From an uncultured Acidobacteriaceae bacterium (GTDB lineage: Bacteria; Acidobacteriota; Terriglobia; Terriglobales; Acidobacteriaceae): DNA of 64,000 nt. The notes under the pieces were generated by a model, which ran no database searches, was not told the DNA's origin, and saw only the letters and a list, made by a program, of their open reading frames with translations. Below are positions 26,443 to 44,002 of this stretch, in pieces. Every line of letters starts with the position of its first letter. The stretch's first letter is position 1. The stretch lies in NCBI GenBank assembly GCA_963747805.1, contig CAVVGM010000004.1, positions 807,998 to 871,997 of the forward strand. Reading direction: 5' to 3'. Both the position numbers and the translations under genes were made by a program.

Positions 26443-26489
26443 ATACGGAGCTAGAGAAACCAACCAACGGAATTAGATCTGCGTATTTA

Positions 26490-27641
26490 ATGACCGACCC
26501 GAACACACTCTCGCCGCTCGATCTCGAAACGCCAGACAAGACGTTTCTCGACGCGAACGAGCTGGTCATCAACATGGGCCCGCAGCATCCTGCGACCCAC
26601 GGCGTGCTGCGCGTAATTTTGCGGCTGGATGGCGAGAAGGTGATGGGCCTGGAGTGCGTGATCGGCTACCTGCATCGCGGCGTCGAAAAAATTGCCGAGA
26701 ACCGCACCTACACAATGTTCAATCCCTACGTCGACCGCATGGATTACGTGGCCGCGGTCTCGAACGGCCTGGGATACTGCGAGACGGTCGAGAAGTTGCT
26801 GGGAGTGGAAGCTCCGCCGCGCGCGCAATATATTCGCGTCATCCTGACTGAGTTGAACCGCATGGCCAGTCACCAGCTTTGGCTGGGGACGCACGCGCTC
26901 GATATCGGCGCCATCACACCGCTGTTCTACACCTTTCGCGACCGCGAAGAGATTCTTAAGATCTTCGAAAAATATTGCGGCGCGCGTCTCACGACGCACG
27001 CCTTTCGCATCGGCGGCTTGCAATACGAGGCTTACGACGGCTTCGAGAAAGATGTGAAGAACTTCATTGCCTTCGTCACGCCGAAGATTGACGAATACGA
27101 AGAACTGCTGACCACGAATCGCATCTGGGTGGAGCGAACCAAAGGTGTCGGCGTCATCTCCGCCAAAGACGCGATCGCCCTGGGCGTTACCGGACCGGTG
27201 CTGCGGGCCAGCGGCGTGAAGTGGGACCTGCGCAAGGCGCAGCCCTACGCCAACTACAAGAATTTCGATTTCGAAATTCCCACCGGACAAAATGGCGACA
27301 CCTATGACCGGTATCTGGTGCGCATGGTCGAAATGCGGCAGTCGTTGCGCATCATCCAGCAGGCCGTGGACGGGTTGCCCGAAGGTCCTGTCATGGCGAA
27401 AGTTCCCAAGGTGATGAAGCCGCCAGTCGGCGAGGTGTATCACTCGATTGAAGCGCCGAAAGGCGAGCTGGGATATTTCATCGTGAGCGACGGCTCCACG
27501 CAGCCTTACCGGGTGCGCGTTCGCCCACCGTCTTTCGTGAACCTGCAGGCTCTGGATGTGATGTGCCGCGGCCAGCTCGTGGCCGATGTGATCGCCGTGA
27601 TCGGCACCCTCGACATTGTTCTCGGTGAGGTGGACCGCTGA
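26490..27641 (+). CDS. nuoD: NADH-quinone oxidoreductase subunit D
   Basis: [23 protein letters not shown], ...[13 protein letters not shown]...DIVLGEVDR. Confidence 0.95.
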
Positions 27642-28987
27642 TGCAACCCGTTATCGACTACATCACGTCCTACCTCAGCAGTTCCCAGACTCCCGGCGCC
27701 GCGGGAAATTTCTTTTGGGCCTTCGTCTACATTCTGCTTGTGTTCGTGGGTCTATCGGTCGCAGTGATCGCGATGAACTGGCTGGAGCGCAAAATTCTCG
27801 CTCACATGCAGGTGCGCCTCGGTCCCATGCGCGTAGGCCCGCACGGCCTGCTGCAGCCCATCGCCGACGCCATCAAGCTGCTGCTCAAGGAAGACATCAT
27901 GCCCGCCGAAGCCGACGGCTTCGTCTTCTGGATCGCGCCGTTCATCGTGGTGCTGGCGGCGTTCACGGTATTCGTGGTGGTTCCCTTCGGTCCGACGCAT
28001 GCCATCACCGATATGAATATCGGCATTCTCTTCATGCTGGGCGTGTCGTCGTTGAGCGTGCTCGGCATTGTGATGGCGGGCTGGGCATCGAATTCGCACT
28101 ATCCTTTGATTGGCGCCTTGCGTTCGAGCGCGCAGATGGTTTCCTACGAAGTGGCGATGGGCCTGGCAGTGGTTTCGGCCATCCTCATGACCAGCCTACA
28201 CGGACTAGGACTTTACGGCGCCGGTATTGCGGGCTCGGGTGACACGGGTACGCTCAGCATGATCGGCATTGTGCAGGCGCAGCAGGAGCAGGGCGTCTGG
28301 TTTGTCTTCAAGTTTTTCCCGCTGGGCTTGATCGCATTCTTCATCTTTGCCATCGCCATGGTCGCCGAGACCAACCGCGCCCCATTCGATCTGCCCGAAG
28401 CCGAGTCAGAGTTGACCGCCGGTTTCCATACGGAATACAGCGGCTTCCGCTGGTCGCTGTTTTTTCTGGCCGAATACTCCGCGATGATCGCGGTTTCGTC
28501 GATCGCAGTCACGTTGTGGCTGGGGGGATGGCTGCGTCCGTTCCCGAACCTGCTGCACGGTTCAACCTGGGATTTGCTCTTCAACCTGTTCCCCGGAATC
28601 ACGTTTCTGTTCCTCGCGGCGCTCTGCTTCTACAGCACGGCGCGCATGCCGAATCATCCCTACTTCAAAATTCAAACTATCGGCCTCGCCGGGTTCGGCG
28701 CGCTGCTTGGTTTGATCGGCGTCGTCCTGTTTATTCCCGCAGTTTTCGTTCGCGTTCAGGATATTTACTGGTTCGCGATCAAAGTTGCCGCGTTCATGTA
28801 CCTCTATATCTGGTATCGTGGCACGTTCCCGCGTTACCGCTTTGACCAGCTGATGAAAGTGGGATGGAAAATTCTGCTGCCCATGGGATTGGGATTGTTA
28901 ATCCTGACTGCGGTCATGGGTATGCGCTCGGAACTGTGGATGGGCGTGGTTGTGCCGCTGTGGCACTGGGTGGCAAGCATTCTATGA
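27641..28987 (+). CDS. nuoH: NADH-quinone oxidoreductase subunit H (enlarged, 448 aa)
   Basis: ERKILAHMQVRLGPMRVGP, ETNRAPFDLPEAESELTAGFHTEYSG, YRFDQLM. The start shares 1 nt with the nuoD stop. Confidence 0.9.
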   Translation: MQPVIDYITSYLSSSQTPGAAGNFFWAFVYILLVFVGLSVAVIAMNWLERKILAHMQVRLGPMRVGPHGLLQPIADAIKLLLKEDIMPAEADGFVFWIAPFIVVLAAFTVFVVVPFGPTHAITDMNIGILFMLGVSSLSVLGIVMAGWASNSHYPLIGALRSSAQMVSYEVAMGLAVVSAILMTSLHGLGLYGAGIAGSGDTGTLSMIGIVQAQQEQGVWFVFKFFPLGLIAFFIFAIAMVAETNRAPFDLPEAESELTAGFHTEYSGFRWSLFFLAEYSAMIAVSSIAVTLWLGGWLRPFPNLLHGSTWDLLFNLFPGITFLFLAALCFYSTARMPNHPYFKIQTIGLAGFGALLGLIGVVLFIPAVFVRVQDIYWFAIKVAAFMYLYIWYRGTFPRYRFDQLMKVGWKILLPMGLGLLILTAVMGMRSELWMGVVVPLWHWVASIL

Positions 28988-29499
28988 ATCCTCCCGTCGC
29001 GACACCGTTTTTCTTCTACCTGCTCTCCGGGACCATGCTGATCGGCGGCATCCTGGTGATCACGCGCAGGAACGCGGTGCACTCGGCGCTGGCCTTGATC
29101 GCCGCCCTGCTGGCGCAGGCCGGGCTCTACCTGATGCTCTACGCACCGTTCGTCGCTGGCGTGCAGATTATTCTCTATGCTGGCGGCATCATGGTGCTGT
29201 TCCTGTTCGTCATCATGCTGGTAAACCTGGAGCGCGCGCAGAAAGAGCGCCAGTTCAACAAGCAATGGCTAGTGGGGATCGCTGCCGCCGGCGCGCTGGG
29301 CGGTTTGTTCATCACGATCTATACGAAAGGGAAGGGAATCTTCCCCGATCACGCAATGCCCTCGGGCCTGGAAGCGGAGAACACCCAAAAAGTTGGCGTG
29401 CTTTTGTACGGCCAGTACATGTTCGCTTTCGAGATTGCATCGCTGCTGTTGCTGGTAGCGATCATCGGAGCGGTCGTGATGGCAAAGAAGAGGATTTGA
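28984..29499 (+). CDS. nuoJ: NADH-quinone oxidoreductase subunit J
   Basis: ATGA overlap with the nuoH stop. ...YAGGIMVLFLFVIML...FAFEIASLLLLVAIIGAVVMA. Confidence 0.85.
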   Translation: MNPPVATPFFFYLLSGTMLIGGILVITRRNAVHSALALIAALLAQAGLYLMLYAPFVAGVQIILYAGGIMVLFLFVIMLVNLERAQKERQFNKQWLVGIAAAGALGGLFITIYTKGKGIFPDHAMPSGLEAENTQKVGVLLYGQYMFAFEIASLLLLVAIIGAVVMAKKRI

Positions 29500-29504
29500 A
29501 AAAA

Positions 29505-29606
29505 GCATTTAGCAATTAGCATTTGGCATTTGGCCAGGCCATGGTTTTGCAGATACCGACAATCGCGGAAGGCTAATTGCCAATTGCGAACGGCTAATTG
29601 CAAAGA
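29505..29606. repeat. Two opposed heptamer arrays, (GCAWTTR)x4 and (GCYAATT-like)x5, separated by ~36 nt in the nuoJ-nuoK spacer
   Basis: gcattta gcaatta gcatttg gcatttg ... gctaatt gccaatt gcgaacg gctaatt gcaaaga. The second array is approximately the reverse complement of the first. Confidence 0.85.
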
Positions 29607-29620
29607 GCTTGCGAGCTGAT

Positions 29621-29956
29621 ATGGAATCCATGCTCCACATCTCGACGCTGCATTACATGGTGCTCAGCGCGGCCCTGTTTCTTTTGGGAGTAATCGGTGT
29701 GCTCACGCGCCGCAACGTGGTGATTGTACTGATGTCGATTGAACTGATCCTGAATGCAGTCAACTTGAACCTGGTCGCCTTCTCGCATTATTGGCAGGGC
29801 ATTCAGGGACCAAACGCCCTGCACGGCCAGGTGTTCGCGATTTTCGTAATCACCGATGCCGCCGCAGAAGCCGCGGTTGGTCTGGGAATCCTGATCGCCT
29901 TCTTCCGTAACAAGGAGACGATCAACGTGGACGAAGTGAATTTACTGAAATGGTAG
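29621..29956 (+). CDS. nuoK: NADH-quinone oxidoreductase subunit K
   Basis: [44 protein letters not shown] at 29621 chosen; 29630 is also possible. Confidence 0.9.
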
Positions 29957-29972
29957 AAGGCCGCTGTTGGCC

Positions 29973-30024
29973 TTTCGCTCTTGGCTTTTAGCTAAGAGCT
30001 AAGAGCCAAGAGCCAAGAGCGAAA
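29973..30024. repeat. Heptamer array (GCTAAGA x2, GCCAAGA x2, GCGAAAA) plus an upstream inverted copy that forms a 13-bp perfect stem ending at the nuoL ATG
   Basis: 29973-29985 tttcgctcttggc pairs with 30012-30024 gccaagagcgaaa. The nuoL ATG is at 30025. Confidence 0.9.
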
Positions 30025-32160
30025 ATGTTCTTATCCCACATCTGGCTCATCCCGCTGCTACCGGCGTTCGGCGCGACCGTCATGTTTTTTTTCGGACGCA
30101 AGCTGCAGAAAACTACGGTAAGCGCGGTGTGCGTGGGAACGATCGTGCTCGCGTTTCTAATGGCGTGCGGCGCGGTCTGGCAGTACTCCGCGTGGTCTTC
30201 GACGCCAGAACATTTTCATCAGCCCTACGAGAAGACGCTTTACACCTGGCTCGGCAGCGATACCGGCCATCTCACCTACAAAACACAATCGGGCGCGCCC
30301 GCCGAATTCCGCGCCGACGCCGGCTTCCTGCTCGACCCGCTCTCCAGCATCTGGCTGCTGTTCGTCACCGGCGTCGGCATGCTGATCCACATTTATTCCA
30401 CCGGCTACATGGCGCATGAAGGCGGCTACTACCGCTTCTTCGGCTATCTCAACCTCTTCATGTTCTCGATGCTGACGCTAATCCTGGCGAACAACTATGT
30501 GCTGCTGTTCGTCGGCTGGGAAGGCGTGGGGCTGTGTTCGTATCTGCTGATCGGTTTCTATTTTCACCGCAAGTCGGCCAGCGACGCGGCGAACAAGGCG
30601 TTCATCGTCAACCGCATCGGCGACGCAGGATTCCTGCTCGGGATGTTCTTCATCGCCTGGATCTTCGGCTCGCTCCAGTTCACCAAGGTTACTGACCTCG
30701 CTCGCGCAGGAAATCTCTCGCCTGAAACGTTAACCTACATCACCGCCGCCACGCTTCTTCTTTTCGTTGGCGCCTGCGGCAAGTCGGCGCAGATTCCACT
30801 CTACATCTGGCTGCCCGACGCCATGGAAGGCCCCACGCCAGTTTCCGCCCTGATCCATGCCGCGACCATGGTGACGGCGGGTGTCTACATGGTGGCGCGT
30901 TCGAATGCGCTGTTCGTGCTGGCGCCCACCTCGATGAAGACCGTGGCCATCGTCGGCGCGCTAACCGCCATCTTTGCCGCTTCCATCGGTTTGGTGCAGA
31001 ACGACATCAAGCGCGTGCTGGCCTACTCCACGGTCTCGCAACTCGGCTACATGTTCCTCGCTCTCGGCGTCGGAGCCTTCGCTGCGGGCGTGTTCCACGT
31101 TTTCACTCACGCGTTCTTCAAAGCGCTGTTGTTCCTCGGCTCCGGTTCGGTGATTCATGCCATGAGCGGCGAGCAGGACATGCGCAACATGGGCGACTTG
31201 CACCGCCGCATCCCCATCACGCACTGGACCATGTTCATCGCGACGCTGGCCATCGCCGGCATTTTCCCGTTTGCTGGCTTCTTCTCGAAGGATGCCATTC
31301 TCTGGGAGACGTGGTCGCGTGAAGGCGGCGCGTACCGCATTCTCTGGGGCGTCGGCTGGTTCACCGCGTTGATGACCGCCTTCTACATGTTCCGGCTGAT
31401 GTACCTGACGTTCCATGGCCGCCCGCGAATGAGCCACGACGTGGAACATCACATCCACGAATCGCCGGCGTCGATGACGGTCCCGCTGGTGACGCTCGCG
31501 CTCTGCGCCATCGTTGCGGGATGGCTGGGCTGGCCACACAGCCTCGGAGGTTCCGACCGCTTCACCAAATTCCTGGAGCCTGTCTTCGCGCCGGAAGCTC
31601 GCGTTCTTCAGCAAGAGGGGCAAACTGGTCAGTTGTACACCGGAGCGAAAGAAGAAGAACACAACACTGGCACGGAGTGGCTGCTGATGGGGCTGTCGCT
31701 GGCCGCAGCCGGCGCGGGATGGGGTGTGGCCTGGAGATGTTATCGCCACGCCGACAAGGGCTACACCGAGCCGATCGCCGCTGTTGCCCCGCCAGTCTAC
31801 AACGTGCTTCTCAACAAGTATTACGTAGACGAAGGCTACGACTATGTTTTCACCGGACGCCGCAAGATCGGAGATGTGCGCCTGGGCGTGATGGGTCTAG
31901 GCGAAGCAAGTTCGTGGTTCGACGCGCACGTCATCGACGGCGCCGTCAACGGCGCGGGATGGACGACACGCCTGTTCGCGACCATCTCCAGTTGGTGGGA
32001 CAAATGGATCATCGACGGCGTCGGCGTCAACGGCCCCGCGATTTTGGCGCGTATGTTGAGTTATCCCGCGCGCCTGCTCGAATGGGGCCAGGTGCAGTGG
32101 TATGCGCTGGTGATGACCGCCGGCCTGGTAGGGTTTGTATTTTATTACGTGTATCACTGA
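30025..32160 (+). CDS. nuoL: NADH-quinone oxidoreductase subunit L
   Basis: Mrp/antiporter-like core (GWEGVGLCSYLLIGF, KSAQIPLYIWLPDAMEGPTPVSALIHAATMVTAGVY) and a long C-terminal lateral-helix region. Confidence 0.95.
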   Translation: MFLSHIWLIPLLPAFGATVMFFFGRKLQKTTVSAVCVGTIVLAFLMACGAVWQYSAWSSTPEHFHQPYEKTLYTWLGSDTGHLTYKTQSGAPAEFRADAGFLLDPLSSIWLLFVTGVGMLIHIYSTGYMAHEGGYYRFFGYLNLFMFSMLTLILANNYVLLFVGWEGVGLCSYLLIGFYFHRKSASDAANKAFIVNRIGDAGFLLGMFFIAWIFGSLQFTKVTDLARAGNLSPETLTYITAATLLLFVGACGKSAQIPLYIWLPDAMEGPTPVSALIHAATMVTAGVYMVARSNALFVLAPTSMKTVAIVGALTAIFAASIGLVQNDIKRVLAYSTVSQLGYMFLALGVGAFAAGVFHVFTHAFFKALLFLGSGSVIHAMSGEQDMRNMGDLHRRIPITHWTMFIATLAIAGIFPFAGFFSKDAILWETWSREGGAYRILWGVGWFTALMTAFYMFRLMYLTFHGRPRMSHDVEHHIHESPASMTVPLVTLALCAIVAGWLGWPHSLGGSDRFTKFLEPVFAPEARVLQQEGQTGQLYTGAKEEEHNTGTEWLLMGLSLAAAGAGWGVAWRCYRHADKGYTEPIAAVAPPVYNVLLNKYYVDEGYDYVFTGRRKIGDVRLGVMGLGEASSWFDAHVIDGAVNGAGWTTRLFATISSWWDKWIIDGVGVNGPAILARMLSYPARLLEWGQVQWYALVMTAGLVGFVFYYVYH

Positions 32161-32175
32161 AGATCGCTCTCGGCC

Positions 32176-32230
32176 CTTGGCTCTTGGCTTTTAGCTAAAG
32201 GCCAAGAGCCAAAAGCCAAGAGCCAAAAGC
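32176..32230. repeat. Inverted plus direct heptamer repeats (GCCAAGA/GCCAAAA) forming a 16-bp perfect stem 5 nt upstream of the nuoM ATG
   Basis: 32177-32192 ttggctcttggctttt pairs with 32211-32226 aaaagccaagagccaa, with an 18-nt loop. The nuoM ATG is at 32232. Confidence 0.9.
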
Positions 32231-32231
32231 A

Positions 32232-33887
32232 ATGTATAACCACATACTCTCGATCATCCTCTTCACGCCGCTCGTCGGCGCGCTTGTGCTCCTGTTCGTT
32301 CCCAAGGAGAACAAGGACGCCATCCGCTGGATCGCCAACATCTTCTCGCTCGCCGGCCTTCTGGTTTCGATTCCACTGGTGCCCTGGTTCTGGGCGCAGC
32401 GCTTCGAGCCCGGGTTCAAGTTCACCGAGGGCGCTCTCAACAACTGGATTCCCTCGATCGGCGCCAGCTACATGCTGGGCATCGACGGCATTTCTTTCCT
32501 GCTGATCATGCTCACCACGCTGCTGGGCTGGATCTCGATTCTCTCTTCCTGGACCGCAATCGAGAATCGAGTGAAGGAATACTACATCTGGTTTCTGGTG
32601 CTGCAGACCGGCATGCTCGGCGTCTTCATGTCGCTCGACTTTTTCCTGTTCTTCGTTTTCTGGGAAGCCATGCTGGTTCCCATGTACCTGCTGATCGGCA
32701 TCTGGGGCGGCCCGCGCAAGCTCTACGCCGCCATCAAGTTTTTCCTCTACACGCTGGCCGGTTCGGTGCTTATGCTGCTCGGCGTCCTTTATCTTTACTT
32801 CAATCACCACAATCTCAAGGGCGTTTACACCTTCAGCATCGAACAGCTCTATACCACCGCGCCGCAGATTCCGTTCCACTTCGCGGTGTGGCTGTTCTTC
32901 GCGTTCTTCGTCGCCTTCGCGATCAAAGTCCCGATGTTCCCGTTCCACACCTGGCTGCCCGACGCCCACGTGGAAGCGCCCACGGCAGGCTCAGTCATCC
33001 TGGCCGGCGTTCTGCTGAAGATGGGGACGTACGGCTTCGTCCGCTTTTCGCTGCCGTTTTTCCCGCAGGTGCTTTCGAATCCGGCAACGTTTCTCAACGT
33101 GACCGTCCGCGGCTGGATGATCGGCCTCTCCATCGTTGCCATCATCTACGGCGCGCTGGTCTCGCTCATGCAGAAGGACATGAAGAAGCTGGTGGCCTAT
33201 TCCTCGGTCAGCCATCTCGGCTTCTGCACCCTAGGAATTTTCGCGCTGAATTCTGCAGGCTTGAGTGGTTCGGTCCTGCAGCAGATCAACCACGGCATCT
33301 CGACCGGAGCGCTCTTCCTGATCGTCGGCATTCTCTACGAACGCCGCCACACCCGCGAAATCTCCGAATACGGCGGCATCTCCAACGTGATGCCCGTCTA
33401 CGCCACCATCACCATGATCATGTTCCTGTCTTCGATGGGACTGCCGCTGCTCAACGGTTTCGTCGGCGAGTTCACCATCCTGCAGGGCACGTTCATGGAG
33501 AACTGGAAGTGGGGCGCGTGGGCCGTACCTGGAGTGGTCCTGGCCGCCGCGTATCTGTTATGGCTCTACCAGCGGGTGTTCTTCGGCACCGTCACGAATC
33601 CAAAAAACGAAAAGCTGCACGATCTGACGCCTCGCGAAGTCCTCACCTTCGCTCCGCTGATCATCGCCGCATTCTGGATCGGCCTGTATCCCAAACCGTT
33701 TTTCCAGATTCTGGAGCAGCCTGTCAATCACCTGGTAGCGACCGTGCATCAGAACGATGTGCAACCGCAGGGCATGATGAATGCCGCCGTCCAGCCTGAA
33801 ACTGTGCCAGCAATGCCGGCGTCAACGCCCGTCCCGGCAGCAGTCAAGAAATCCTCAGCAGCCAAACCTGCGAAAGGGAAGAACTAG
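32232..33887 (+). CDS. nuoM: NADH-quinone oxidoreductase subunit M
   Basis: FFVFWEAMLVPMYLLIGIWGG, KVPMFPFHTWLPDAHVEAPTAGSVILAGVLLKMG. Pro/Ala/Lys-rich C-terminal tail. Confidence 0.95.
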   Translation: MYNHILSIILFTPLVGALVLLFVPKENKDAIRWIANIFSLAGLLVSIPLVPWFWAQRFEPGFKFTEGALNNWIPSIGASYMLGIDGISFLLIMLTTLLGWISILSSWTAIENRVKEYYIWFLVLQTGMLGVFMSLDFFLFFVFWEAMLVPMYLLIGIWGGPRKLYAAIKFFLYTLAGSVLMLLGVLYLYFNHHNLKGVYTFSIEQLYTTAPQIPFHFAVWLFFAFFVAFAIKVPMFPFHTWLPDAHVEAPTAGSVILAGVLLKMGTYGFVRFSLPFFPQVLSNPATFLNVTVRGWMIGLSIVAIIYGALVSLMQKDMKKLVAYSSVSHLGFCTLGIFALNSAGLSGSVLQQINHGISTGALFLIVGILYERRHTREISEYGGISNVMPVYATITMIMFLSSMGLPLLNGFVGEFTILQGTFMENWKWGAWAVPGVVLAAAYLLWLYQRVFFGTVTNPKNEKLHDLTPREVLTFAPLIIAAFWIGLYPKPFFQILEQPVNHLVATVHQNDVQPQGMMNAAVQPETVPAMPASTPVPAAVKKSSAAKPAKGKN

Positions 33888-35431
33888 TGGGCGTGCTCTC
33901 CCAATTTTCCTGGACGGATTACCTGCTGGCGCTGCCCATTACTCTGCTCGCGTTGTTCGCCCTCGGCATCCTGCTCATCGACTTCATGCTCCCCAAAGAG
34001 ATGAAGTGGGCGAATGCCTTTACTGCGTTCATCGGAGTAATGTTCTCGATTGCCGGTGTCATCAAGATTCAGCTCTGGATGCACAGTGTCAACGTCCCGG
34101 GCGCTGCTGGTTTCATGAACACCATGCTGGTCGACCGCTTTGCCATTTATTTTTTCTATCTGTTCCTGGCAGCTACCGCCGTTGCTATTCTGATGTCCAG
34201 CCGCTACATGGAAATTGAGCACGAAAATCACGGCGAGTATTACGCTCTGATGCTGCTCTCAGTCGCCGGCATGATGTGCATGGCCGCCGGCTTCGATATC
34301 GTTCTGATCTTCATCGGCCTCGAACTGATGGCGATTTCCACCTACGTGCTAGTCGGTTTCCTGCGCCGCGACCGCCGCTCCAACGAAGCTGCCTTGAAGT
34401 ATTTGCTGCTGGGCGCGTTCTCCTCCGGCATTTTTGCTTATGGCCTGTCGCTGATCTATGGACTCACGGGCAGCACGAATCTTTACGAAATCGGCCGGCG
34501 CCTTCCGCTCATCATGCAGGGCAACCAGAAGCCCATCGCCATCGTGGCCCTGCTGACTACGATGACCGGCCTCCTGTTTAAGATTGCGGCCGTCCCATTC
34601 CACCAGTGGGCCCCGGACGCCTATGAAGGCGCGCCCACCAGCATCACCGGATTCATGTCGGTCGCGGTCAAGGCTGCGGGCTTTGCCATGCTCTTCCGCA
34701 TACTGATGGGCAGTCCGATCGCTCCAGGCGGACTGATTGCCATGCGTCCGATCTACGTCCCGCTTCTGGTCTTCGTCTCCATCGCGACCATGACCGGAGC
34801 GAACTTCGCCGCGCTCACGCAGACCAACACCAAACGCCTGCTGGCCTACTCCTCGATCGCGCACGTCGGCTACATGCTGCTCGGTTTGATCGCCGGAACC
34901 GCGACCGTCGTCAGCATGGACGGAATCAAGGGCATTCTGATCTATCTGCTGGTCTACACTTTCATGAACCTCGGCGCATTCGGCGTGATCACATCGCTAC
35001 GCCATCGCAAGGTAATCGGCGATGAACTCGACGATCTCAACGGCCTCTACTCGCGTGCTCCCATTGAGGCCGTGCTCATGCTCGTGTTCCTGCTCTCGCT
35101 GGCGGGCATTCCGCCGCTGGCCGGCTTCTATGGCAAGTATTTCATCTTCCTGAGCCTGATCGAGTCGGGACATTATGCCCTGGCCTCGCTAGGCGTTCTG
35201 TATTCCGTCTTCGGCCTCTACTACTACCTGCGGATGGCCAACGCCATGTTCATGGGCAAAGCCGAAGCGGGCGAAGCGCACCTCCCCGTGGGTATCGCGA
35301 TGCGCGCCGGCCTCACCATCACGGCCTTTGCCACGCTCTTCATCGGCATCCTCCCCGACCGCTTCATTCAGGTAGTGAACTGGGCTCTGGGCATCGCACA
35401 GAATCCCGCGATCGCAAAAGTAATCCGCTAG
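33887..35431 (+). CDS. nuoN: NADH-quinone oxidoreductase subunit N
   Basis: The GTG start shares 1 nt with the nuoM stop. LELMAISTYVLVGF, KIAAVPFHQWAPDAYEGAPT. Confidence 0.9.
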   Translation: MGVLSQFSWTDYLLALPITLLALFALGILLIDFMLPKEMKWANAFTAFIGVMFSIAGVIKIQLWMHSVNVPGAAGFMNTMLVDRFAIYFFYLFLAATAVAILMSSRYMEIEHENHGEYYALMLLSVAGMMCMAAGFDIVLIFIGLELMAISTYVLVGFLRRDRRSNEAALKYLLLGAFSSGIFAYGLSLIYGLTGSTNLYEIGRRLPLIMQGNQKPIAIVALLTTMTGLLFKIAAVPFHQWAPDAYEGAPTSITGFMSVAVKAAGFAMLFRILMGSPIAPGGLIAMRPIYVPLLVFVSIATMTGANFAALTQTNTKRLLAYSSIAHVGYMLLGLIAGTATVVSMDGIKGILIYLLVYTFMNLGAFGVITSLRHRKVIGDELDDLNGLYSRAPIEAVLMLVFLLSLAGIPPLAGFYGKYFIFLSLIESGHYALASLGVLYSVFGLYYYLRMANAMFMGKAEAGEAHLPVGIAMRAGLTITAFATLFIGILPDRFIQVVNWALGIAQNPAIAKVIR

Positions 35432-35469
35432 AGAACATTCTGCTCATCCATCGCAACTCCTTAAGCCTT

Positions 35470-35527
35470 GTCATCCTGAGCGAAGCATGATCGTCCAAAG
35501 GACGGTCATGCGCAGTCGAAGGATCCC
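35470..35527. repeat. REP-like intergenic element: GTCATCCTGAGCGAAGC ... GCAGTCGAAGGATCC halves around an 11-bp hairpin (catgatcgtcc-aaa-ggacggtcatg)
   Basis: The hairpin was read directly (35486-35510, one G:U pair). The flanking motif resembles a repeat I recall from intergenic regions of soil bacteria; that recollection is unverified. It lies 40 nt after the nuoN stop. Confidence 0.35.
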
Positions 35528-35668
35528 TTGCACCTCCGCACCACTAGCGGCCCATAACGAAGCTTCCATCCCTTTGCCTTAGCTGTCCCCCCTTTCAAGA
35601 CTTAATGAGAATCTTCCGGGTTCTGACGGCCGTTAGCCTAGGATAGACTCTCACCGTGTAAAAACCCC

Positions 35669-36202
35669 ATGCCAGTTCTCATCCGCCAGGCCGTTCTCGC
35701 TGACGTTCCCGCGCTGCGTGTGCTGATCGACGCATCCGTCCGCCAGCTTCAGGCCGGAGATTACACGCCCAGCCAACTGGAAAGCGCGCTCGAAACCGTC
35801 TACGGCGTGGACAGCCAGCTGATCGCGGACGGCACCTACTACGCCGCCGAGTCCGACGGGACCCTGGTCGGCTGCGGCGGCTGGAGCCAGCGCAAAACGC
35901 TCTTCGGCGGCGACCGCTGGACCGCCCGCCAGGATGACCTGCTCGATCCGCAGCGCGATGCCGCAAAAATTCGCGCCTTCTTCGTCGATCCCGCATGGGC
36001 GCGCCGCGGAATTGGCACCTTGATTCTTGAAGCCTGCGAGTCAGCCGCGAAGGCTGCCGGCTTCACCCGCCTGGAGATGGGAGCAACCCTCACCGGCGTC
36101 CCTTTTTACCGCGTAAAAGGCTACGTTGAACTCGAACATCTCGCCGTCACGCTGGCCAACGGCGATTCGCTGGCCATCGTGCGCATGGCCAAAAATGTAT
36201 AG
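35669..36202 (+). CDS. GNAT-family N-acetyltransferase
   Basis: FFVDPAWARRGIGTLILEACESAAKAAGF matches the acetyl-CoA-binding motif A (Q/RxxGxG/A). Confidence 0.8.
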   Translation: MPVLIRQAVLADVPALRVLIDASVRQLQAGDYTPSQLESALETVYGVDSQLIADGTYYAAESDGTLVGCGGWSQRKTLFGGDRWTARQDDLLDPQRDAAKIRAFFVDPAWARRGIGTLILEACESAAKAAGFTRLEMGATLTGVPFYRVKGYVELEHLAVTLANGDSLAIVRMAKNV

Positions 36203-36257
36203 AGGTCTATACTTGAGATTCGGGCGAAACCAGTGACCTCCACGGCCAAGCCAGAAT

Positions 36258-36512
36258 GTGCCACTTGCGCCTATGCCAAAACCACCCGACAACGACAGCC
36301 CCGAACAACAGAAGCGGAGCTTCTGGCTGCAGTTCGGCCGCTACAGCCAGTTGGCGTTCGCATTGCCCGCCGCAACGATCGCGGGTTGGCTTCTGGGCTC
36401 TCTGCTCGATCGCTGGCTGCACACGTCTTGGATCAGCGTAGTCGGCTTGCTGCTCGGCATTGCCGCAGGCCTGATTGAGCTGCTGCGAACCGTCTCCCGC
36501 GATATGCGCTGA
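36258..36512 (+). CDS. AtpZ/AtpI-family small membrane protein (F-ATPase operon leader gene)
   Basis: Two TM helices (YSQLAFALPAATIAGWLLGSLLD, WISVVGLLLGIAAGLIELL) directly upstream of the atp genes. ATG at 36273 is an alternative start. Confidence 0.7.
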   Translation: MPLAPMPKPPDNDSPEQQKRSFWLQFGRYSQLAFALPAATIAGWLLGSLLDRWLHTSWISVVGLLLGIAAGLIELLRTVSRDMR

Positions 36513-36526
36513 GGACTTTCAACCAG

Positions 36527-37057
36527 ATGGATTCGGCAACACCAGCATCGGACGACCCTGGGCCAACGAATCAAGGGCCAACGAATCAAGGAGCAACGAA
36601 TCAAGAACCAACGAGTCCCGGGGAGACGCACGGACCTGCGAGCCCGGAGGCCGCACCAGCCAATGATTTCTATTCGGGCGCAGTTGGGCGCATCCGCGGT
36701 TTCATGGCCGCCCTGGCGCTGGTACTCTCTGCGGCAGCCTGGTGGAGCTTCGGACGCTGGTCCGCGCTGGGTTTCGCCTTAGGTTGCGCCATCGCCTACC
36801 TCAATTTCCACTGGCTGAAGCGCGGCGTCAGCGGACTAGCCGACCGCGTCACCAACGCCGGCAAACCCCAGTCCGGCAGCGGGATCGTGGCCCGCTTCCT
36901 GCTGCGTTATGTTTTGCTGGGCGCCGCCGCGTATGTTATATTAACCAGTTTTCCCGCGAGCCTCCGGGGCCTCTTTGCGGGTCTGTGTTTACCCGTAGGA
37001 GCAATTGCCTGCGAAGCGATCTATGAGCTGTATGTATCTGTGTTTCGTGCCTCTTAG
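36527..37057 (+). CDS. atpI: ATP synthase subunit I-like membrane protein with an N-terminal GPTNQ repeat
   Basis: Position immediately upstream of atpB. Four hydrophobic helices (FLLRYVLLGAAAYVILT etc.). Confidence 0.6.
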   Translation: MDSATPASDDPGPTNQGPTNQGATNQEPTSPGETHGPASPEAAPANDFYSGAVGRIRGFMAALALVLSAAAWWSFGRWSALGFALGCAIAYLNFHWLKRGVSGLADRVTNAGKPQSGSGIVARFLLRYVLLGAAAYVILTSFPASLRGLFAGLCLPVGAIACEAIYELYVSVFRAS

Positions 37058-37099
37058 CAAAGCCTCCGCACAATGGCGGAGGAAGCTTAGGAATTCGAA

Positions 37100-37141
37100 G
37101 CTCAAAGCCAAGAGCTAAAAGCCGAGAGCTAAAAGCTGTCT
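37100..37141. repeat. Six tandem heptamers (GCTCAAA GCCAAGA GCTAAAA GCCGAGA GCTAAAA GCTGTCT) ending 1 nt before the atpB ATG
   Basis: Read directly. It is preceded by a 7-bp hairpin, cctccgc-acaatg-gcggagg (37064-37083). Confidence 0.9.
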
Positions 37142-37142
37142 T

Positions 37143-37901
37143 ATGCCTGAACAACTCTGGTTCACCGAAATCCTGAACCGCTTTCTGGCCGGCCCGGTCA
37201 CGGCGCTGCTCGGACTGCTGCATATTCCGCCCAAGCATCCGGACGCTCCCATCACCAATGCCTTCGCCATGGAACTGGTAGTTGCGTTTCTCCTGATTGC
37301 CGTGTTTCTGCTGCTGCGCTCGCGCTTGTCGGTGGACTCGCCCGGCGCCCTGCAGCACATTTTCGAAGGCACCGAAGGTTTCGTACTCGGCCAGAGCCGC
37401 GAAATTATCGGCCATCACAGCGAGCCTTACATTGCGTTCTTTGCCATCTTATTTATTTTCATTCTCGCCTGTAACCTGATCGGATTGGTTCCCGGCTTCG
37501 AGTCGCCCACAGGAGTTACGGTGGTGCCGCTCGGTTGCGCGATCTGCTCGTTCTTGTACTACCACATCCAAGGCTTCAAGCACTCGGGACCGAAATACCT
37601 CTTGCATTTCTTCGGACCGCCGATGGAAGGCATGCCGTTGATAGCCCGCATCGGGTTGGCAGCATTGATGTTGCCAATCGAACTGGTCAGCCACACAGCG
37701 CGATTGCTTTCGCTTACAGTTCGTCTCTGGGCTAACATTTTCGCCGGCGACCTGATCACCCTGGTTTTCCTTTCCATGATCCCGATTGGCGTTCCCATCA
37801 TCTTCATGGGTCTCCACATAATGGTCGCTGTTTTGCAAGCATACGTTTTCATGCTGTTGTCGATCATCTACGTCTCCGGCGCAGTCGCCGAAGAACACTG
37901 A
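37143..37901 (+). CDS. atpB: F0F1 ATP synthase subunit a
   Basis: LSLTVRLWANIFAGDL (essential Arg context), with 5-6 TM helices. Confidence 0.9.
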   Translation: MPEQLWFTEILNRFLAGPVTALLGLLHIPPKHPDAPITNAFAMELVVAFLLIAVFLLLRSRLSVDSPGALQHIFEGTEGFVLGQSREIIGHHSEPYIAFFAILFIFILACNLIGLVPGFESPTGVTVVPLGCAICSFLYYHIQGFKHSGPKYLLHFFGPPMEGMPLIARIGLAALMLPIELVSHTARLLSLTVRLWANIFAGDLITLVFLSMIPIGVPIIFMGLHIMVAVLQAYVFMLLSIIYVSGAVAEEH

Positions 37902-37953
37902 AAAGCAGGGGACAGTCAGCGGGCAGTGAGTGCGTTGCAGATACACGATTTTT

Positions 37954-37983
37954 CTGAGAGCTGAGAGCTGAAGGCTGAGAGCC
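37954..37983. repeat. Four tandem heptamers (CTGAGAG x2, CTGAAGG, CTGAGAG) in the atpB-atpE spacer
   Basis: Read directly. In the alternative phase these read GCTGAGA/GCTGAAG, the same family as the other arrays. Confidence 0.9.
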
Positions 37984-38073
37984 ACGACCTTAGAACTGTC
38001 CGCAAGCGTGAGGGCGTCTGCACGGTATGGCGTCAACCACCCACTGGCGGAAATTTAATACGAGGAGAAAACA

Positions 38074-38376
38074 ATGCGTAAGTTAAGTTATATGTTCATG
38101 ACTCTATCTGGTCTTTGCTTCGCCATGCCTGCATTTGCGCAGGGCGGGACGATGACTGACGCCAGTTGGGTCGCCATCACCGCCGGATTCTCCATGGCCA
38201 TCGCTTCCGCGGTCTGCGGCCTCGCCCAAGGCAAGGCCACAGCCGCCGCCACTGAAGCCCTGGCCCGCAACCCTGCCGCACGGCCAGGCATCCAGTTCGC
38301 CCTCCTGCTGGGCCTGGTGCTGATCGAATCACTAGCGCTGTACACGCTCGCGATTATCTTCCTGAAAGTGAAGTAG
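38074..38376 (+). CDS. atpE: F0F1 ATP synthase subunit c with a signal-peptide-like N-terminal extension
   Basis: The hairpin core is ...AVCGLAQGKATAAATEALARNPAARP...LLGLVLIESLALYTLAIIF. AGGAG RBS upstream. The N-terminus is MRKLSYMFMTLSGLCFAMPAFA|QG. Confidence 0.9.
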   Translation: MRKLSYMFMTLSGLCFAMPAFAQGGTMTDASWVAITAGFSMAIASAVCGLAQGKATAAATEALARNPAARPGIQFALLLGLVLIESLALYTLAIIFLKVK

Positions 38377-38392
38377 AAGGAACCGCCACAAA

Positions 38393-38433
38393 ATCAAAAG
38401 CCTCTGCCCATTCGCCGGGCAGAGGCTTTTGAT
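38393..38433. terminator. Bidirectional Rho-independent terminator between atpE (+) and the 921-aa gene (-)
   Basis: 17-bp perfect stem atcaaaagcctctgccc / gggcagaggcttttgat with a 7-nt loop, a GC-rich core and U-rich tails in both orientations. Confidence 0.8.
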
Positions 38434-38438
38434 TTGAA

Positions 38439-38510
38439 GTCTGAGTCTGAGTCTGAAGTCCGAAAGCTAAAAGCTGAAAGCTAAGAGCCAAGAGCCAAGA
38501 GCCAAGAGCC
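38439..38510. repeat. GTCTGA x3 hexamers followed by ~6.5 heptamers (GCTAAAA GCTGAAA GCTAAGA GCCAAGA x3) ending at the stop codon of the minus-strand 921-aa gene
   Basis: Read directly. The stop codon of the 921-aa gene (cta on the plus strand) is at 38511-38513. Confidence 0.9.
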
Positions 38511-41276
38511 CTATCCCTTGCGCTCGCCGCTCCACTCCTGCCCCTTGTTCTGGGCAATCTGGTTCATGGCTTCCACCAGCACTCTACGCAGGCGGTAACG
38601 GCTCTCCAGATCGGTATTCACAATCTCGAATCCCACTTCGTTGACGCGCGCGCGGCGCAGCAACACATGCGCGCGGACCTTAGCCCGCATACCCACAGAA
38701 ATTTCCAGGTCCGCCTCACTGCCGATGCGCAGGTTGTCTTCTTTGGTCCCCATGCCGCCGCCCAGGCTGAGCTCGCGAATCATGATCCGCGATTTTCCCC
38801 ACGAGCTGCCAATGGTCGCGCTCACCGTGCGCGACAGCACCATGCGTTCGTAGCGACGTTGCCGTACCCAGGGGCATGCCGGAGCCATATCCAGCGGCGC
38901 AATCGCCAACTCCGCCGGCTCCAGCCCGCTGTCGGCGAGCACCTGCGGGCCATAGCGTGGGTCCGTCTTGGACAAAGCCTGTGCCGCCGCAATGCGCAGC
39001 TCGCGGTGGTGAACCCAACCAAAAGTTTTCTTGGCCTCAAGAATTTCGCGCAGCGTGGCCACAGCTTCAGGATCCCGCAACCGCCCCAGCGACTCGATCG
39101 CTTTCAACTGGATGAAGGGCGAACGCGAAGCCGACTCTCCCGGGCGTGCCATCGCAATCAGCGGCTGGGCAGCAGTAATGTCGCCGCTCATGCCAATCTC
39201 GTCAACCGCTTCCGGCAACACCAGCGGGTCGAGAATCTCGGCCAACTCCAGCAGCGTGCGGCCGCGGTCGATAGCCGCTCCATAAGCGATCTGCCGAACC
39301 GTAATATCGTGATAGAAGCGATTCCATTCCGGCAACCGCATGGGCAGCAATTCCAGCAGCGTGGCCGTATCCAGCCGGCTCAAAATCCCCACCGCCGCAG
39401 AAGCCTGCCGCAATTGTCCAGTGCGCAGAATCTCGCGCAGCTGGGCCATCACCGGCGCACCGACTTCCTTGACCAGTTCGATCATGCGGTCGCATTCATC
39501 ACGCCGCATGCAGCGGAAGAAGCGATCGGCCAAATGCTCTGCTCCGGCGCTGGCTGTCCGCCGCAAAACTGCAATCAGATCCTTGGGCACGGGGTCGCTG
39601 CGCAGGGCTTCTTCGATAAATTCAGGCAGCCGGTTTTCCACGCCCACGCGTGGCCGCAAGTCATTTCCCATCACCGGGCGTTGCGTGAAAACCGCTTCCA
39701 TGCTGGTGCAAACCTGATTCACCGCAGCGTAGTTCTTCGATGAACTCGCTTCCTGGCTCAACCGCACGAAAGCCGCGCTGATCAAGCTCTGCAGCTCGGA
39801 ATCCTTTTCCGTGATCAGCTGCTCGCTCAACTTGTGGATGGCGTCTCCCATGGCCTCACCGCCGAGCCGGGAGTAAAGATCGGCTAACTGGCTCAACCCA
39901 ATGGCGATCTTGCGGCGCGGCTCGATTTCTCGCGCATTCATGCAGCCGGAGTAGTTCTTCAAAATGTCTTCCGCGGTCTGCTTGTCGTCCCGTTCCAGCA
40001 GCACTTCCACAAACTGGCGCACGTTGCGCGGCGGGACGCAGGCCGCCTCATGCGAGAGCAGCACGCTTTTCTTTCCCGACTCCGGCACTTCCGCCCAGAA
40101 CATGCGGTCAAGAATGTCGGCATGCGAATCAATCAGGATGCCGGCCTTGCTCATTTTGTCTTCTTGCGTGCGCAGGATCTTGCGCAACGAGTCCATCTGC
40201 CGGCTCATGTGCTCCATCATCTGGTGCACGGCATTTACTTTGACTTCGCCCTTCTGGTACCGCTCCAGGGCGAAACGAATCGCCATATGCTCGGCCGCCT
40301 TCATCAGCAGCGGCGCATCCTCCTCCTCCGAGGTTGCCGCTTTCGCGGAAAGGCTGCCCAGCAGTTGTTGCAGGTTCAGCCGCGTATTAGGATCAACCGC
40401 AGCCATGTCTTTCTGCAGATCTTCCGTTCCAATACTGGGATCGTTCTGTGCTTGCCCGAAGCGAGTGAGCAGGCGAATGGCCTGCACCACTTCTTCTTCC
40501 TGTAAAGGCACAATGCCGCCGGTCCACGCCGGAGCAACGCCAGTTCCCGTACCGCCGCCACCACCGCCGCCGAGAGGAACGTTCGGCACGCTGCCCAGCG
40601 GTGCAGTTGGTCCGCCAACCGGCCCTTCGCCCTTGGAGTTCGCTCCCTCCGCGGCCGCAATCAACTGCAACAGCTTCTGCGGATCATTCAGCCATTGCTT
40701 AAACTCAGGACCCAGCGTCTGCGCCGCGATCTGCGCCGCGATGCTCACGTCTCCCGTAAGCGGATCGGCGGCAACAAACTTGACCTCGTTAATCCGAATG
40801 GTGCTGTTATTGTTCCCGAGGCCCAGAGCTTCTTTAATTTGCTTCGAAACATCCTGAGCCTTCGAGCCCCCGATGGTAAACGCCCGCACCAGTCGCGTGA
40901 AATCTTCGATCGTAACGTCTTTGGAAAAATGCAAGCTGGCCAGCCCGGCCGCGTTCAACAGGTTTGCAAAGCTGCGCTCCGCGTTTCCTGTCTCCAGTGG
41001 AATTCCATCGAGCAACAACTTGTTGTCCGACACGCCCAGCAAAAAGCCGCTGTCTCCCGCTGTGGGCAGGCCGTTCTGCAGTTCGTTCCACGTAGTCTCG
41101 AACTGCGCTTCGGTGCGCTTGTGCTCGTAGCCATACATACGCGCGTACTTGATCAGAATGTTCAGGCTATGAACAAACGCACGCGCCGAAGCGGCCCGGT
41201 TCTCTTGAGATGTGCTCTGGGCGGTGATAAGAATCTCCTCTAAACCCGCAGTAGCGCACACCAAGGGTAAGACCAA
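38511..41276 (-). CDS. Large multidomain protein: conserved N-terminal region, Gly-run linker, HEAT/PBS-lyase-like repeats and a C-terminal PilZ (c-di-GMP-binding) domain
   Basis: C-terminus has RQRRYER ... RELSLGGG (PilZ RxxxR and D/N-x-S-x-x-G-like motifs). HEAT-like LKAIESLGRLRDPEAVATLREIL. The start is uncertain (TTG at 41276; no early ATG). Confidence 0.75.
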   Translation of the reverse strand: MVLPLVCATAGLEEILITAQSTSQENRAASARAFVHSLNILIKYARMYGYEHKRTEAQFETTWNELQNGLPTAGDSGFLLGVSDNKLLLDGIPLETGNAERSFANLLNAAGLASLHFSKDVTIEDFTRLVRAFTIGGSKAQDVSKQIKEALGLGNNNSTIRINEVKFVAADPLTGDVSIAAQIAAQTLGPEFKQWLNDPQKLLQLIAAAEGANSKGEGPVGGPTAPLGSVPNVPLGGGGGGGTGTGVAPAWTGGIVPLQEEEVVQAIRLLTRFGQAQNDPSIGTEDLQKDMAAVDPNTRLNLQQLLGSLSAKAATSEEEDAPLLMKAAEHMAIRFALERYQKGEVKVNAVHQMMEHMSRQMDSLRKILRTQEDKMSKAGILIDSHADILDRMFWAEVPESGKKSVLLSHEAACVPPRNVRQFVEVLLERDDKQTAEDILKNYSGCMNAREIEPRRKIAIGLSQLADLYSRLGGEAMGDAIHKLSEQLITEKDSELQSLISAAFVRLSQEASSSKNYAAVNQVCTSMEAVFTQRPVMGNDLRPRVGVENRLPEFIEEALRSDPVPKDLIAVLRRTASAGAEHLADRFFRCMRRDECDRMIELVKEVGAPVMAQLREILRTGQLRQASAAVGILSRLDTATLLELLPMRLPEWNRFYHDITVRQIAYGAAIDRGRTLLELAEILDPLVLPEAVDEIGMSGDITAAQPLIAMARPGESASRSPFIQLKAIESLGRLRDPEAVATLREILEAKKTFGWVHHRELRIAAAQALSKTDPRYGPQVLADSGLEPAELAIAPLDMAPACPWVRQRRYERMVLSRTVSATIGSSWGKSRIMIRELSLGGGMGTKEDNLRIGSEADLEISVGMRAKVRAHVLLRRARVNEVGFEIVNTDLESRYRLRRVLVEAMNQIAQNKGQEWSGERKG

Positions 41277-41750: not shown

Positions 41751-41911
41751 CGTTCCCTCATTTCCGTCTGCAACGATATTCCGCAGTATAAAGCTGACTC
41801 TTGCGCGGGCGGCAGAACACGAGATGTCCGCGCTCCAGACCTGCCGCGGTGCGAAAATGATACAGTCGATTTGTTCCGAGGAATTTTGTTTTGCCATCTT
41901 CCACCAGCAAT

Positions 41912-43843: not shown

Positions 43844-44002
43844 ATGTCCGCCGCACAGCCGCTTGGACGGAGGCGCTAATGTCGTAGACGTTGCTAGTAG
43901 CTCCCGAGTCACTTCCGCGCTTCGGCGGCACCAGATACAAATGTTGTTGCTTCTCGCGGGCTGCTTGGCCACTCGATCAGCTGAAGCCCGAAGCCCGAAC
44001 CT

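Follow-up and report, generated by a model that had tools for sequence, protein, structure and literature searches.

Heptanucleotide repeat arrays and repeat-built hairpins at the gene junctions of nuo and atp operons in an uncultured Acidobacteriaceae bacterium

The 64-kb stretch of contig CAVVGM010000004.1 analyzed here (the window), from an uncultured Acidobacteriaceae bacterium, carries nuo and atp operons whose intergenic spacers hold tandem arrays of 7-nt units. Gene names were verified by Pfam for nuoC, nuoD, nuoH, nuoJ, nuoK, nuoL, nuoM, nuoN, a GNAT gene, atpZ, atpI, atpB and atpE, and a convergent gene of 921 amino acids follows. The nuo cluster (25687-35431) runs nuoC-D-H-J-K-L-M-N, with no nuoI between nuoH and nuoJ and no nuoE, nuoF or nuoG; its NuoH is long (448 amino acids). 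Arrays were detected by Tandem Repeats Finder (TRF), a regular-expression scan and a mismatch-tolerant pattern scan, and all three agree on those reported (Table 1). A period-independent detector requiring at least about four copies returned six arrays of period 7, all within 29503-38514, and none of periods 5, 6 or 8-11 in the window. As a chance test, three GCYRARR units with at most one mismatch were sought in the window and in 100 dinucleotide-preserving shuffles of it. The window gave 20 matches, three of them on the minus strand and all inside five nuo/atp spacers, and the shuffles gave none. The six arrays reported for these spacers in a preliminary description of this DNA are thus beyond chance, and the nuoJ/K array, set apart there as a variant, is indeed a different heptamer, AGCATTT in four copies.

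Array-bearing gaps make up six of the ten between nuoC and the convergent gene; window scans found no arrays in the nuoC/D, nuoN/GNAT, GNAT/atpZ and atpZ/atpI gaps, so that the earlier "nearly every spacer" was overstated. Gene pairs without a spacer overlap, as had been described: nuoD/H (TGATG) and nuoM/N (TAGTG) by one nucleotide, and nuoH/J too. Three arrays were likewise correctly placed close to the next ATG, at 1-8 nt. A single orientation of all arrays, which had also been claimed, does not hold, since nuoK/L and nuoL/M contain two to four inverted units 5' of the sense array and the nuoJ/K array has an inverted partner. The absence of further family arrays from the 64 kb stands insofar as no GCYRARR match lies outside the five spacers, but a short GAAGCCC array had been overlooked.

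Table 1. Repeat arrays, inverted arms and associated features in the window
Feature	Position	Strand	Evidence or remark
nuoJ/K 5' arm: AGCATTT-type heptamer array, about 4 units	29504-29536 (array 29504-29531)	+	TRF period 7, 4.0 copies; arm of inverted repeat I4
nuoJ/K 3' arm: GCTAATTGC/CAATTGC repeats pairing with the 5' arm	29560-29601	+	TRF 21-nt x2; I4, 75% complementary
nuoK/L inverted pyrimidine-rich heptamer arm, beginning 6 nt past the nuoK stop	29962-29990	-	minus-strand GCYRARR match 29972-29992; inverted repeats I1, I3, I6
nuoK/L sense array: GCTAAGA x2, GCCAAGA x2, GCGAAA	29991-30024 (4 units plus a degenerate one; 29991-30020)	+	reaches nuoL ATG at 30025
nuoL/M inverted arm: GCTCTCG GCCCTTG GCTCTTG GCTTTTA, beginning 6 nt past the nuoL stop	32166-32193	-	TRF period 7 at 32166-32189; minus-strand matches; inverted repeats I2, I7
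nuoL/M sense array: GCTAAAG GCCAAGA GCCAAAA GCCAAGA GCCAAAA GC (5 units)	32194-32230	+	1 nt short of nuoM ATG at 32232
Small stem-loop CCTCCGC/GCGGAGG directly past the atpI stop, no U tail	37063-37082	+	predicted fold
atpI/B sense array: GCTCAAA GCCAAGA GCTAAAA GCCGAGA GCTAAAA GCT (4-5 units), no inverted partner	37100-37137	+	5 nt short of atpB ATG at 37143
atpB/E sense array: (T)CTGAGA GCTGAGA GCTGAAG GCTGAGA GCC (3-4 units)	37953-37982	+	about 90 nt 5' of atpE
Conserved structured atpE leader with Shine-Dalgarno (SD) motif GAGGAG (38062-38067)	38003-38067	+	alignment A1, 24 Acidobacteriota sequences; not a heptamer repeat
Intrinsic-terminator-like hairpin after atpE: 19-bp perfect arms, then TTTTGATTT	38391-38435	+	inverted repeat I8, 100% complementary; fold
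Post-atpE array: (TCCGAAA) GCTAAAA GCTGAAA GCTAAGA GCCAAGA x3 GCC (6-7 units)	38459-38510	+	between atpE terminator and convergent-gene stop codon 38511-38513
Mini-array GAAGCCC x3	43981-44001	+	abuts ATG at 44003

With inverted units beside the sense array, the nuoK/L and nuoL/M spacers are each predicted to fold into one long hairpin, 5' of the start codon, of which the heptamer array forms one arm. The nuoK/L spacer RNA has a predicted minimum free energy of -41.1 kcal/mol (z -6.3) and a perfect helix of 17 bp; the nuoL/M spacer RNA is predicted to form 24 pairs (-40.0 kcal/mol, z -6.4). A longer, imperfect hairpin built from the other heptamer is predicted for nuoJ/K (-41.7 kcal/mol, z -2.6). 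The inverted repeats of these three spacers are the longest local ones in the 64 kb and can pair in several 7-nt registers, and none of the three atp arrays has an inverted partner. The roles proposed earlier for the arrays (ribosome standby or translation tuning, RNase processing or stability, a copy-number switch) were reasonable; the hairpin architecture, which had been overlooked, alters the mechanistic picture.

Both the nuoK/L and the nuoL/M hairpin are followed by an A-rich 3' flank with no U tract. A terminator scan of the window flagged nothing at either spacer; it returned 10 sites in total, with 9.7 expected from shuffles, among them a weak stem of 6 pairs (29522-29538) within the nuoJ/K element. 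An Rfam search gave no family above the gathering threshold, only generic long-hairpin matches (microRNA precursors, 27-37 bits against 80-95). The last array lies 3' of the terminator-like hairpin after atpE and adjoins the convergent gene's stop codon (0 nt between them). It is antisense relative to the gene it touches, and on the mRNA of that gene it would read pyrimidine-rich directly past the stop codon. Placed beyond the terminator and against the convergent stop codon, it need not be transcribed as sense RNA. The statement that every array is transcribed as purine-rich sense RNA is therefore too broad, whereas a predominance of sense purine-rich arrays in the nuo and atp operons is real.

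A metagenome scan with NuoM yielded 80 loci (protein identity 59-97%), across which the gene order is kept from nuoH to nuoN, through atpZ-I-B-E, to the convergent gene. A Terriglobales clade of 39 loci (457 kb, NuoM identity at least 73%) was compared with outgroup Acidobacteriota (468 kb). Period-7 arrays of at least four copies number 43 in the clade, against 0-3 for each other period from 4 to 12, and 16 in the outgroup. Gaps of at least 20 nt in the clade loci were scored for a period-7 array, with genes called by a simple open reading frame (ORF) heuristic and shared ancestry left out of the counts. Arrays occupy 39 of 100 co-directional nuo/atp gaps and 5 of 71 other co-directional gaps (Fisher p = 1e-6), as well as 3 of 36 convergent and 2 of 37 divergent other gaps; the outgroup has them in 4 of 70 co-directional nuo/atp gaps. 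The intra-operon enrichment that the preliminary description had put forward for checking is thus found in the window and across the Terriglobales clade, and the excess over the 7% baseline is still there when each junction is counted as a single ancestral event.

At nuoL/M, heptamer-periodic hairpins are predicted in 18 clade loci including the window, most with z of about -4.5 to -9.5 against shuffles, and their stems stand a median of 4 nt past the stop codon and a median of 6 nt before the start codon. The nuoJ/K, nuoK/L and atpB/E junctions show the same behaviour, and the clade spacers together have 41 such hairpins, 35 with at least 20 predicted pairs. The unit varies by lineage (GCCAAGA, GCTAGAA, GCTAAAG/GCTAAGA, AACTGAG, CGACGAC, GCTAAGT) and the position stays. 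The outgroup nuoL/M spacer is about 20 nt long and has a GAGG (SD-like) motif; outgroup nuoM starts carry GAGG, and the starts behind arrays have no SD of the GGAG/GAGG type. Crude SD usage, from noisy start-site calls, comes to 14.5% for clade loci, 23% for the outgroup and 27% for the window. The nuoL/M spacer of three lineages (L127, L132 and L133) is occupied by a GC-rich palindrome of the repetitive extragenic palindrome (REP) type, GTAGCGCCGCC...GGCGGCGCTAC, where sister lineages have a heptamer hairpin, suggesting that a hairpin at this place is what is kept or tolerated.

Turnover of the arrays was seen among closer relatives. One genome per species was scanned for three GCYAAGA units, giving at least 120 stretches (loci L001-L120). 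The closest relative of the window among the matches listed, the Candidatus Sulfotelmatobacter metagenome-assembled genome L053, has 88% nucleotide identity to it across nuo, and its nuoK/L hairpin carries substitutions and the same unit count. Locus L121, also with 88% nucleotide identity, has arrays, mostly of GCTAGAA, at five of the six window places and none at nuoJ/K; GCTAGAA/GCTAGGA units occupy the position of the window's atpI/B array and GCTGAAA/GCTAGAA units that of the post-atpE array. The atpI/B spacer of L011 has no array. At the atpB/E position relatives show hairpins of other heptamers (e.g. TTTCAGT/GGAAACT, CCTGAGA, CTGACAA), and their spacers between atpE and the convergent gene contain a comparable hairpin and T-run after atpE. 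Close relatives differ in copy number by whole units, another point proposed for checking: L146 has one CCTGAGA unit more than L139 (98.4% identical) and L130 one GCTAACA unit more than L131 (93% identical). Only one of six indels between the 98.4%-identical genomes falls in an array. Unit purity shows no end-to-end gradient along arrays, hence no sign of one-directional growth. Top units differ by at most one mismatch in 30% of same-genome pairs versus 13% (n=23), a weak genome "flavour".

Two further observations concern mobile-type repeats in these spacers. An origin of the hairpins as transposable elements of the miniature inverted-repeat type (MITEs) was considered and set aside: the nuoJ/K insertion has no target-site duplication in comparison with L053, and similarity between hairpins is expected from low-complexity repeats anyway. 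Separately, a dispersed repeat, GTCATCCTGAGCGAAGC..., lies in the nuoN/GNAT spacer of the window (35470-35486) and recurs in nuo spacers of relatives (L121:13224, L138:1152, L139:7706, L146:7621, L200:4862, L014 as an inverted pair, and L073). It sits in the loop of the L138 nuoL/M heptamer hairpin, forms palindromic pairs in L014 and L200, and may be MITE- or REP-like.

On the sense strand, 28 nuo/atp spacers carry purine-rich arrays only and 7 pyrimidine-rich arrays only, and none carries a purine-rich array followed by a pyrimidine-rich one. The strand bias that had been proposed for checking is therefore present in these spacers. Of the two arms of a hairpin, the 3' one has the higher purine share in 34 of the 41 and the 5' one in 5; we dropped this polarity as a measure of transcription-strand bias because a hairpin with a pyrimidine-rich 5' arm shows that arrangement on whichever strand it is read.

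Beyond the two operons, 47 of the 120 GCYAAGA matches listed come from Acidobacteriota, mostly Terriglobales metagenome-assembled genomes, and others from Planctomycetota, Bacteroidota, Cyanobacteria, Gammaproteobacteria and further phyla. An operon-specific family, as the earlier scan of the 64 kb had implied, is not borne out: GCYAAGA arrays occur elsewhere in Acidobacteriota genomes, in gaps of the antisense, convergent and divergent kinds too, and numerous other phyla have them. In other Acidobacteriota they lie 1-8 nt 5' of the starts of pth, a release-factor gene, atpA, a PHP-domain (dnaE-like) gene and a DHH-family gene, and no SD motif was found at those starts. Among the Acidobacteriota matches listed, the 3' end of the purine-rich strand comes to 12 nt or less from a gene boundary in 22 of 40 arrays and the 5' end in 5 of 40; the boundary met by that 3' end is a same-strand start codon in 13 of 23 cases and an opposite-strand stop codon in 9 of 17, about equally often. 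The listed matches from other phyla show the opposite, with the 5' end following a stop codon (29 of 65 versus 10 of 65). In the co-directional gaps of the listed Acidobacteriota the arrays are off-centre, at a median of 9 nt to the downstream gene versus 38 nt to the upstream one. Over the matches listed, the purine-rich strand is the G-rich strand in 75 versus 44 loci; a replication-strand link through GC skew was rejected as inseparable from gene orientation.

Several other features of the window were examined alongside the arrays. Between the a- and c-subunit genes, in the place that we take to be that of the cyanobacterial ATPC motif, lies the structured atpE leader. Twelve pairs are supported in the 24 aligned Acidobacteriota sequences, six with compensatory changes; the helices comprise CAG/CTG, an invariant GUG/CAC and a 5-bp stem with GC-to-CG compensatory swaps, after which the strong SD follows. 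The leader has no Rfam match, and among the start regions tested that of atpE takes the least energy to open (4.2 kcal/mol). The gene behind the GAAGCCC mini-array encodes 185 amino acids and begins MTHAQLVEKAVRWLRHYRCG...; its L044 ortholog has (GCTAAGA)5 (L044:486-520) 8 nt 5' of the start and its L123 ortholog a GCTGAAA array 3' of the gene (L123:20859-20890), which makes this junction another site of recurring arrays with differing units. The direct repeat at 16170-16224, earlier regarded as related, consists of three copies of a 17-18-nt unit, AAGAGCAGCGATAAAA; it is not heptameric and shares only the core AAGAGC. Located between divergent genes, it may be an operator-like direct repeat. 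At 41936-41997 a 15-nt coding repeat, GCCACAGCCAAGACC x4, encodes the TAK-rich N-terminus of a 650-aa ORF (41891-43843) and is outside the heptamer family.

We know of no established role for bacterial heptanucleotide repeats outside one Haemophilus locus, and our literature search found no paper linking Acidobacteria with heptamer repeats, in keeping with the earlier remark that short tandemly repeated repetitive (STRR)-like heptamers had no described equivalent in this phylum. REPs and bacterial interspersed mosaic elements (BIMEs) of enterobacteria are dispersed intergenic hairpin repeats, often between cistrons, that can stabilise the upstream mRNA segment. REPs, with one conserved palindrome in each genome, depend on RAYT transposases for their mobility; here, unlike in REP/BIME, the stems are made of tandem heptamers that differ from spacer to spacer within the genome. 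Strict STRR units, which we take to be CCCCAGT, TTGGTCA and CAACAGT, belong to heterocystous cyanobacteria, whereas the units here are GCYRARR and AGCATTT and the host is a member of Terriglobales. Like the cyanobacterial STRRs (Calothrix PCC 7601; cited in PMC4692102) and the long simple-sequence repeats (SSRs), the present arrays are above-chance intergenic tandem 7-nt units; they differ in unit and phylum, and hairpin pairing, persistence at operon junctions and polarity lie outside those descriptions as far as these sources summarise them. The arrays fit the heptanucleotide long-SSR class (Mrazek 2007) in being tandem 7-nt units beyond chance with whole-unit differences between close relatives. 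Heptanucleotide repeats are the most abundant long SSRs in most genomes according to the summary of Mrazek 2007 in PMC4679880, where polymerase slippage is given as the proposed origin.

Closer parallels exist for single traits. The four-heptanucleotide elements of Geobacter metallireducens (GGACCGG; MTYCTGA) are also multicopy, lie between and within genes and were proposed to be regulatory, but they have a fixed 4-5 units and a GC-rich unit, and no operon-junction pattern is described (PMC2700814). In Xanthomonas, GGGAATC forms 70-75 convergent inverted pairs able to form stem-loops, mostly between co-directional genes (Rehm et al. 2015, PMC4692102). These arrays and the Nostoc GGGGAYT arrays, one of which is inside the pec operon, resemble ours in being mostly intergenic, in their inverted pairs and in conserved locations with variable length and sequence; unlike ours, they consist of G-rich G-quadruplex units, show no strand bias (30-35% on each strand), lie near the upstream ORF (28 nt) and not near the downstream start, and have no described operon enrichment (PMC4692102). 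The TAACTGA repeats of marine Beggiatoaceae, some Cyanobacteria and Bacteroidetes run forward over the ribosome-binding region of SD-less genes (MacGregor 2015, PMC4679880). They share the position a few nucleotides 5' of starts with no SD, the occurrence in operons (there those of ribosomal-protein genes) and the spread over distant phyla; the unit is another, copy number is 2-6, and a single indirect repeat but no hairpin architecture was reported (PMC4679880). As a separate observation, the L025 nuoL/M spacer has GGATAACTGACAACTGG, containing a TAACTGA unit (a TAACTGA-like pair), directly before the nuoM ATG, and the related AACTGAG/AACCGAG units recur 5' of nuoM and between atpB and atpE in several Terriglobales loci.

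Haemophilus influenzae hmw is the closest studied case and the sole one with an experimentally shown mechanism. Upstream of hmw1A, (ATCTTTC)n is transcribed and forms the pyrimidine-rich left arm, opposite a purine-rich right arm, of a long hairpin in the 5' untranslated region; RNase III cleavage of the hairpin raises expression, and the hairpin is required for copy-number change (PMC12721329). The hmw1A/hmw2A loci and the junctions described here have in common a heptamer array 5' of the start (transcribed in Haemophilus), a pyrimidine-rich left arm and whole-unit copy-number change. They differ in that the right arm is a unique G-rich stretch in Haemophilus and an inverted repeat copy here, and in that hmw is one virulence locus with at least 11 repeats and phase variation, as against 2-7 units per arm, many core respiratory junctions and predicted hairpins. 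What is new here is the phylum, the unit family and the combination of Xanthomonas-like inverted pairs, Beggiatoaceae-like start adjacency and a clear operon-junction preference; the class itself is known.

The arrays are almost certainly heptanucleotide SSRs remodelled by whole-unit slippage. Slipped-strand mispairing would add or remove whole units, and intrastrand template switching would probably keep an array and its inverted copy complementary. That they are, in addition, retained as cis-acting elements on polycistronic mRNA is the proposal best supported by analogy, and on it we are evenly balanced. The Terriglobales lineage studied here has long kept them at the membrane-subunit gene junctions of the nuo and atp operons, where they would act in two forms. 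In one, a purine- and A-rich array running up to an SD-less start codon would act as a leader; in the other, a pyrimidine-rich arm past the upstream stop and a purine-rich arm before the downstream start would form an imperfect stem of about 20-50 predicted pairs spanning the spacer. Such a stem would draw the stop and start codons together and, as long double-stranded RNA, would be the kind of substrate used by RNase III, so that it could determine how strongly each cistron is expressed and how stable it is, as in Haemophilus hmw. The junction enrichment, the clade-wide persistence despite turnover, the proximity to start codons and the replacement by other hairpin repeats suggest that something is retained, which could be the spacer-spanning hairpin or the purine-rich leader.

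A number of results weigh against retention on mRNA. Sense and antisense folds are about equal in energy (29 versus 22 spacers, Wilcoxon p = 0.07; 171 versus 150 G-U pairs), giving no hint of selection acting on the sense-strand RNA, and the 34:5 arm polarity, given the palindromic nature of a hairpin, says nothing about the direction of transcription. Opening energies of the start regions (nuoL 20.0, nuoM 15.6 and atpB 12.2 kcal/mol; background median 13.6) include no outliers; with energies this ordinary, the form of translational coupling in which a hairpin blocks the ribosome-binding site is unsupported. Neither L053 nor L121, the two relatives at 88% identity, has the nuoJ/K hairpin, so these elements come and go. 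Genome-wide, co-directional gaps of the Acidobacteriota matches listed have 18 sense versus 13 antisense GCYAAGA arrays, a weak bias, and further arrays sit in convergent and divergent gaps. Three permuted heptamers gave 6, 30 and 9 stretches in viral contigs versus 21 for GCYAAGA, which rules out GCYAAGA as a special unit there. To this come the non-independence of the clade counts through shared ancestry, the crude gene calls, and the fact that transcription within the operon mRNA, RNase III cleavage and effects on translation or stability are what we infer. Neutral SSRs would account for much the same observations: slippage biased to 7 nt (the polymerase-footprint idea of Mrazek) would seed arrays where they are harmless, removal of harmful versions would leave their orientation and position, and inverted arrays would survive at tight operon junctions by folding away. 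The presence of GCYRARR and other heptamer arrays in many phyla and every intergenic context, the lack of a privileged unit, the fast gain, loss and unit turnover with whole-unit indels, the likeness of sense and antisense folds and the start regions that are not unusually closed all speak for it, as does the reported top abundance of heptanucleotides among long SSRs in most genomes (Mrazek 2007 as summarised in PMC4679880). Neutral insertions should, however, gather in the least constrained gaps, yet convergent gaps are occupied in 8% and nuo/atp junctions in 39%; four to five of about six junctions occupied against a 7% baseline is unlikely even as single ancestral events; persistence over a clade with NuoM identity of 73%-100% speaks against simple decay; and the co-directional arrays of the listed Acidobacteriota sit off-centre near the start codon instead of filling the gap. 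We regard the neutral account as a serious rival but give it clearly less than even weight.

Action at the DNA level, through binding arrays for a protein reading a 7-bp period (three units equal two helical turns), cruciforms, or marks of replication, recombination or nucleoid domains, would fit hairpins that are equally good, and arm polarity that is the same, on both strands. The same-strand starts (13/23) and opposite-strand stops (9/17) abutted by the 3' end among the matches listed agree with it as well as with an RNA rule, and the purine-rich strand tends to be G-rich in those loci (75 versus 44). It is nevertheless improbable: we know of no candidate binding protein, the unit sequences differ too widely among spacers of one genome to suit a sequence-specific binder, the GC-skew link is confounded with gene orientation, and the constant purity along arrays gives no sign of one-directional growth. 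Whole-unit differences between close relatives, together with the grading of expression by heptamer copy number in Haemophilus hmw (PMC12721329), could instead point to contingency switches in which copy number switches or grades the downstream gene, as at the hmw, uspA2 and opa loci of pathogens. Contingency loci have SSRs in the promoter or ORF of surface, virulence or restriction genes, whereas the neighbours here encode core nuo/atp subunits required in set proportions and are neither surface nor antigen genes. No reading frame can shift in the untranslated spacers that hold the arrays, the rate is not extreme (one of six indels in an array between 98.4%-identical genomes) and the window and L053 share the nuoK/L unit count, all of which makes phase variation very improbable. 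Least credible are intrinsic terminators or attenuators dividing the operons into transcription units. The stems are strong, and in several relatives the nuoL/M 3' arm has a U-rich tail (e.g. GAGCTTTTC before the ATG), but the window hairpins run into A-rich sequence, the scan flags neither nuoK/L nor nuoL/M and finds no more sites than shuffles do, the real atpE terminator is a separate hairpin, and stopping inside the complex I operon would unbalance subunits required in equal amounts.

For annotation, such spacers are repeat-built hairpins and not small genes, terminators or known RNA families. The window and its 80 relatives form a natural comparative series, in which the same six junctions occur with and without arrays, with differing units and copy numbers, between genes whose products are needed in fixed ratios; this makes the action of such repeats on mRNA directly testable in cultivable Terriglobales. 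Going beyond retention on mRNA, a family-level clade of Terriglobales may have swapped overlapping or SD-led respiratory junctions for a sequence-independent module (stop, pyrimidine-rich arm, loop, purine-rich arm, start) whose sequence slippage and template switching rewrite while selection keeps the shape, read by a shared factor such as RNase III, ribosomal protein S1 or a protein that reads the 7-nt period; we consider this a long shot. If true, the logic of such a junction module could cover the heptamers of Cyanobacteria, Bacteroidota, Planctomycetota and Beggiatoaceae and would, more than 30 years on, assign a function to STRR-type repeats.

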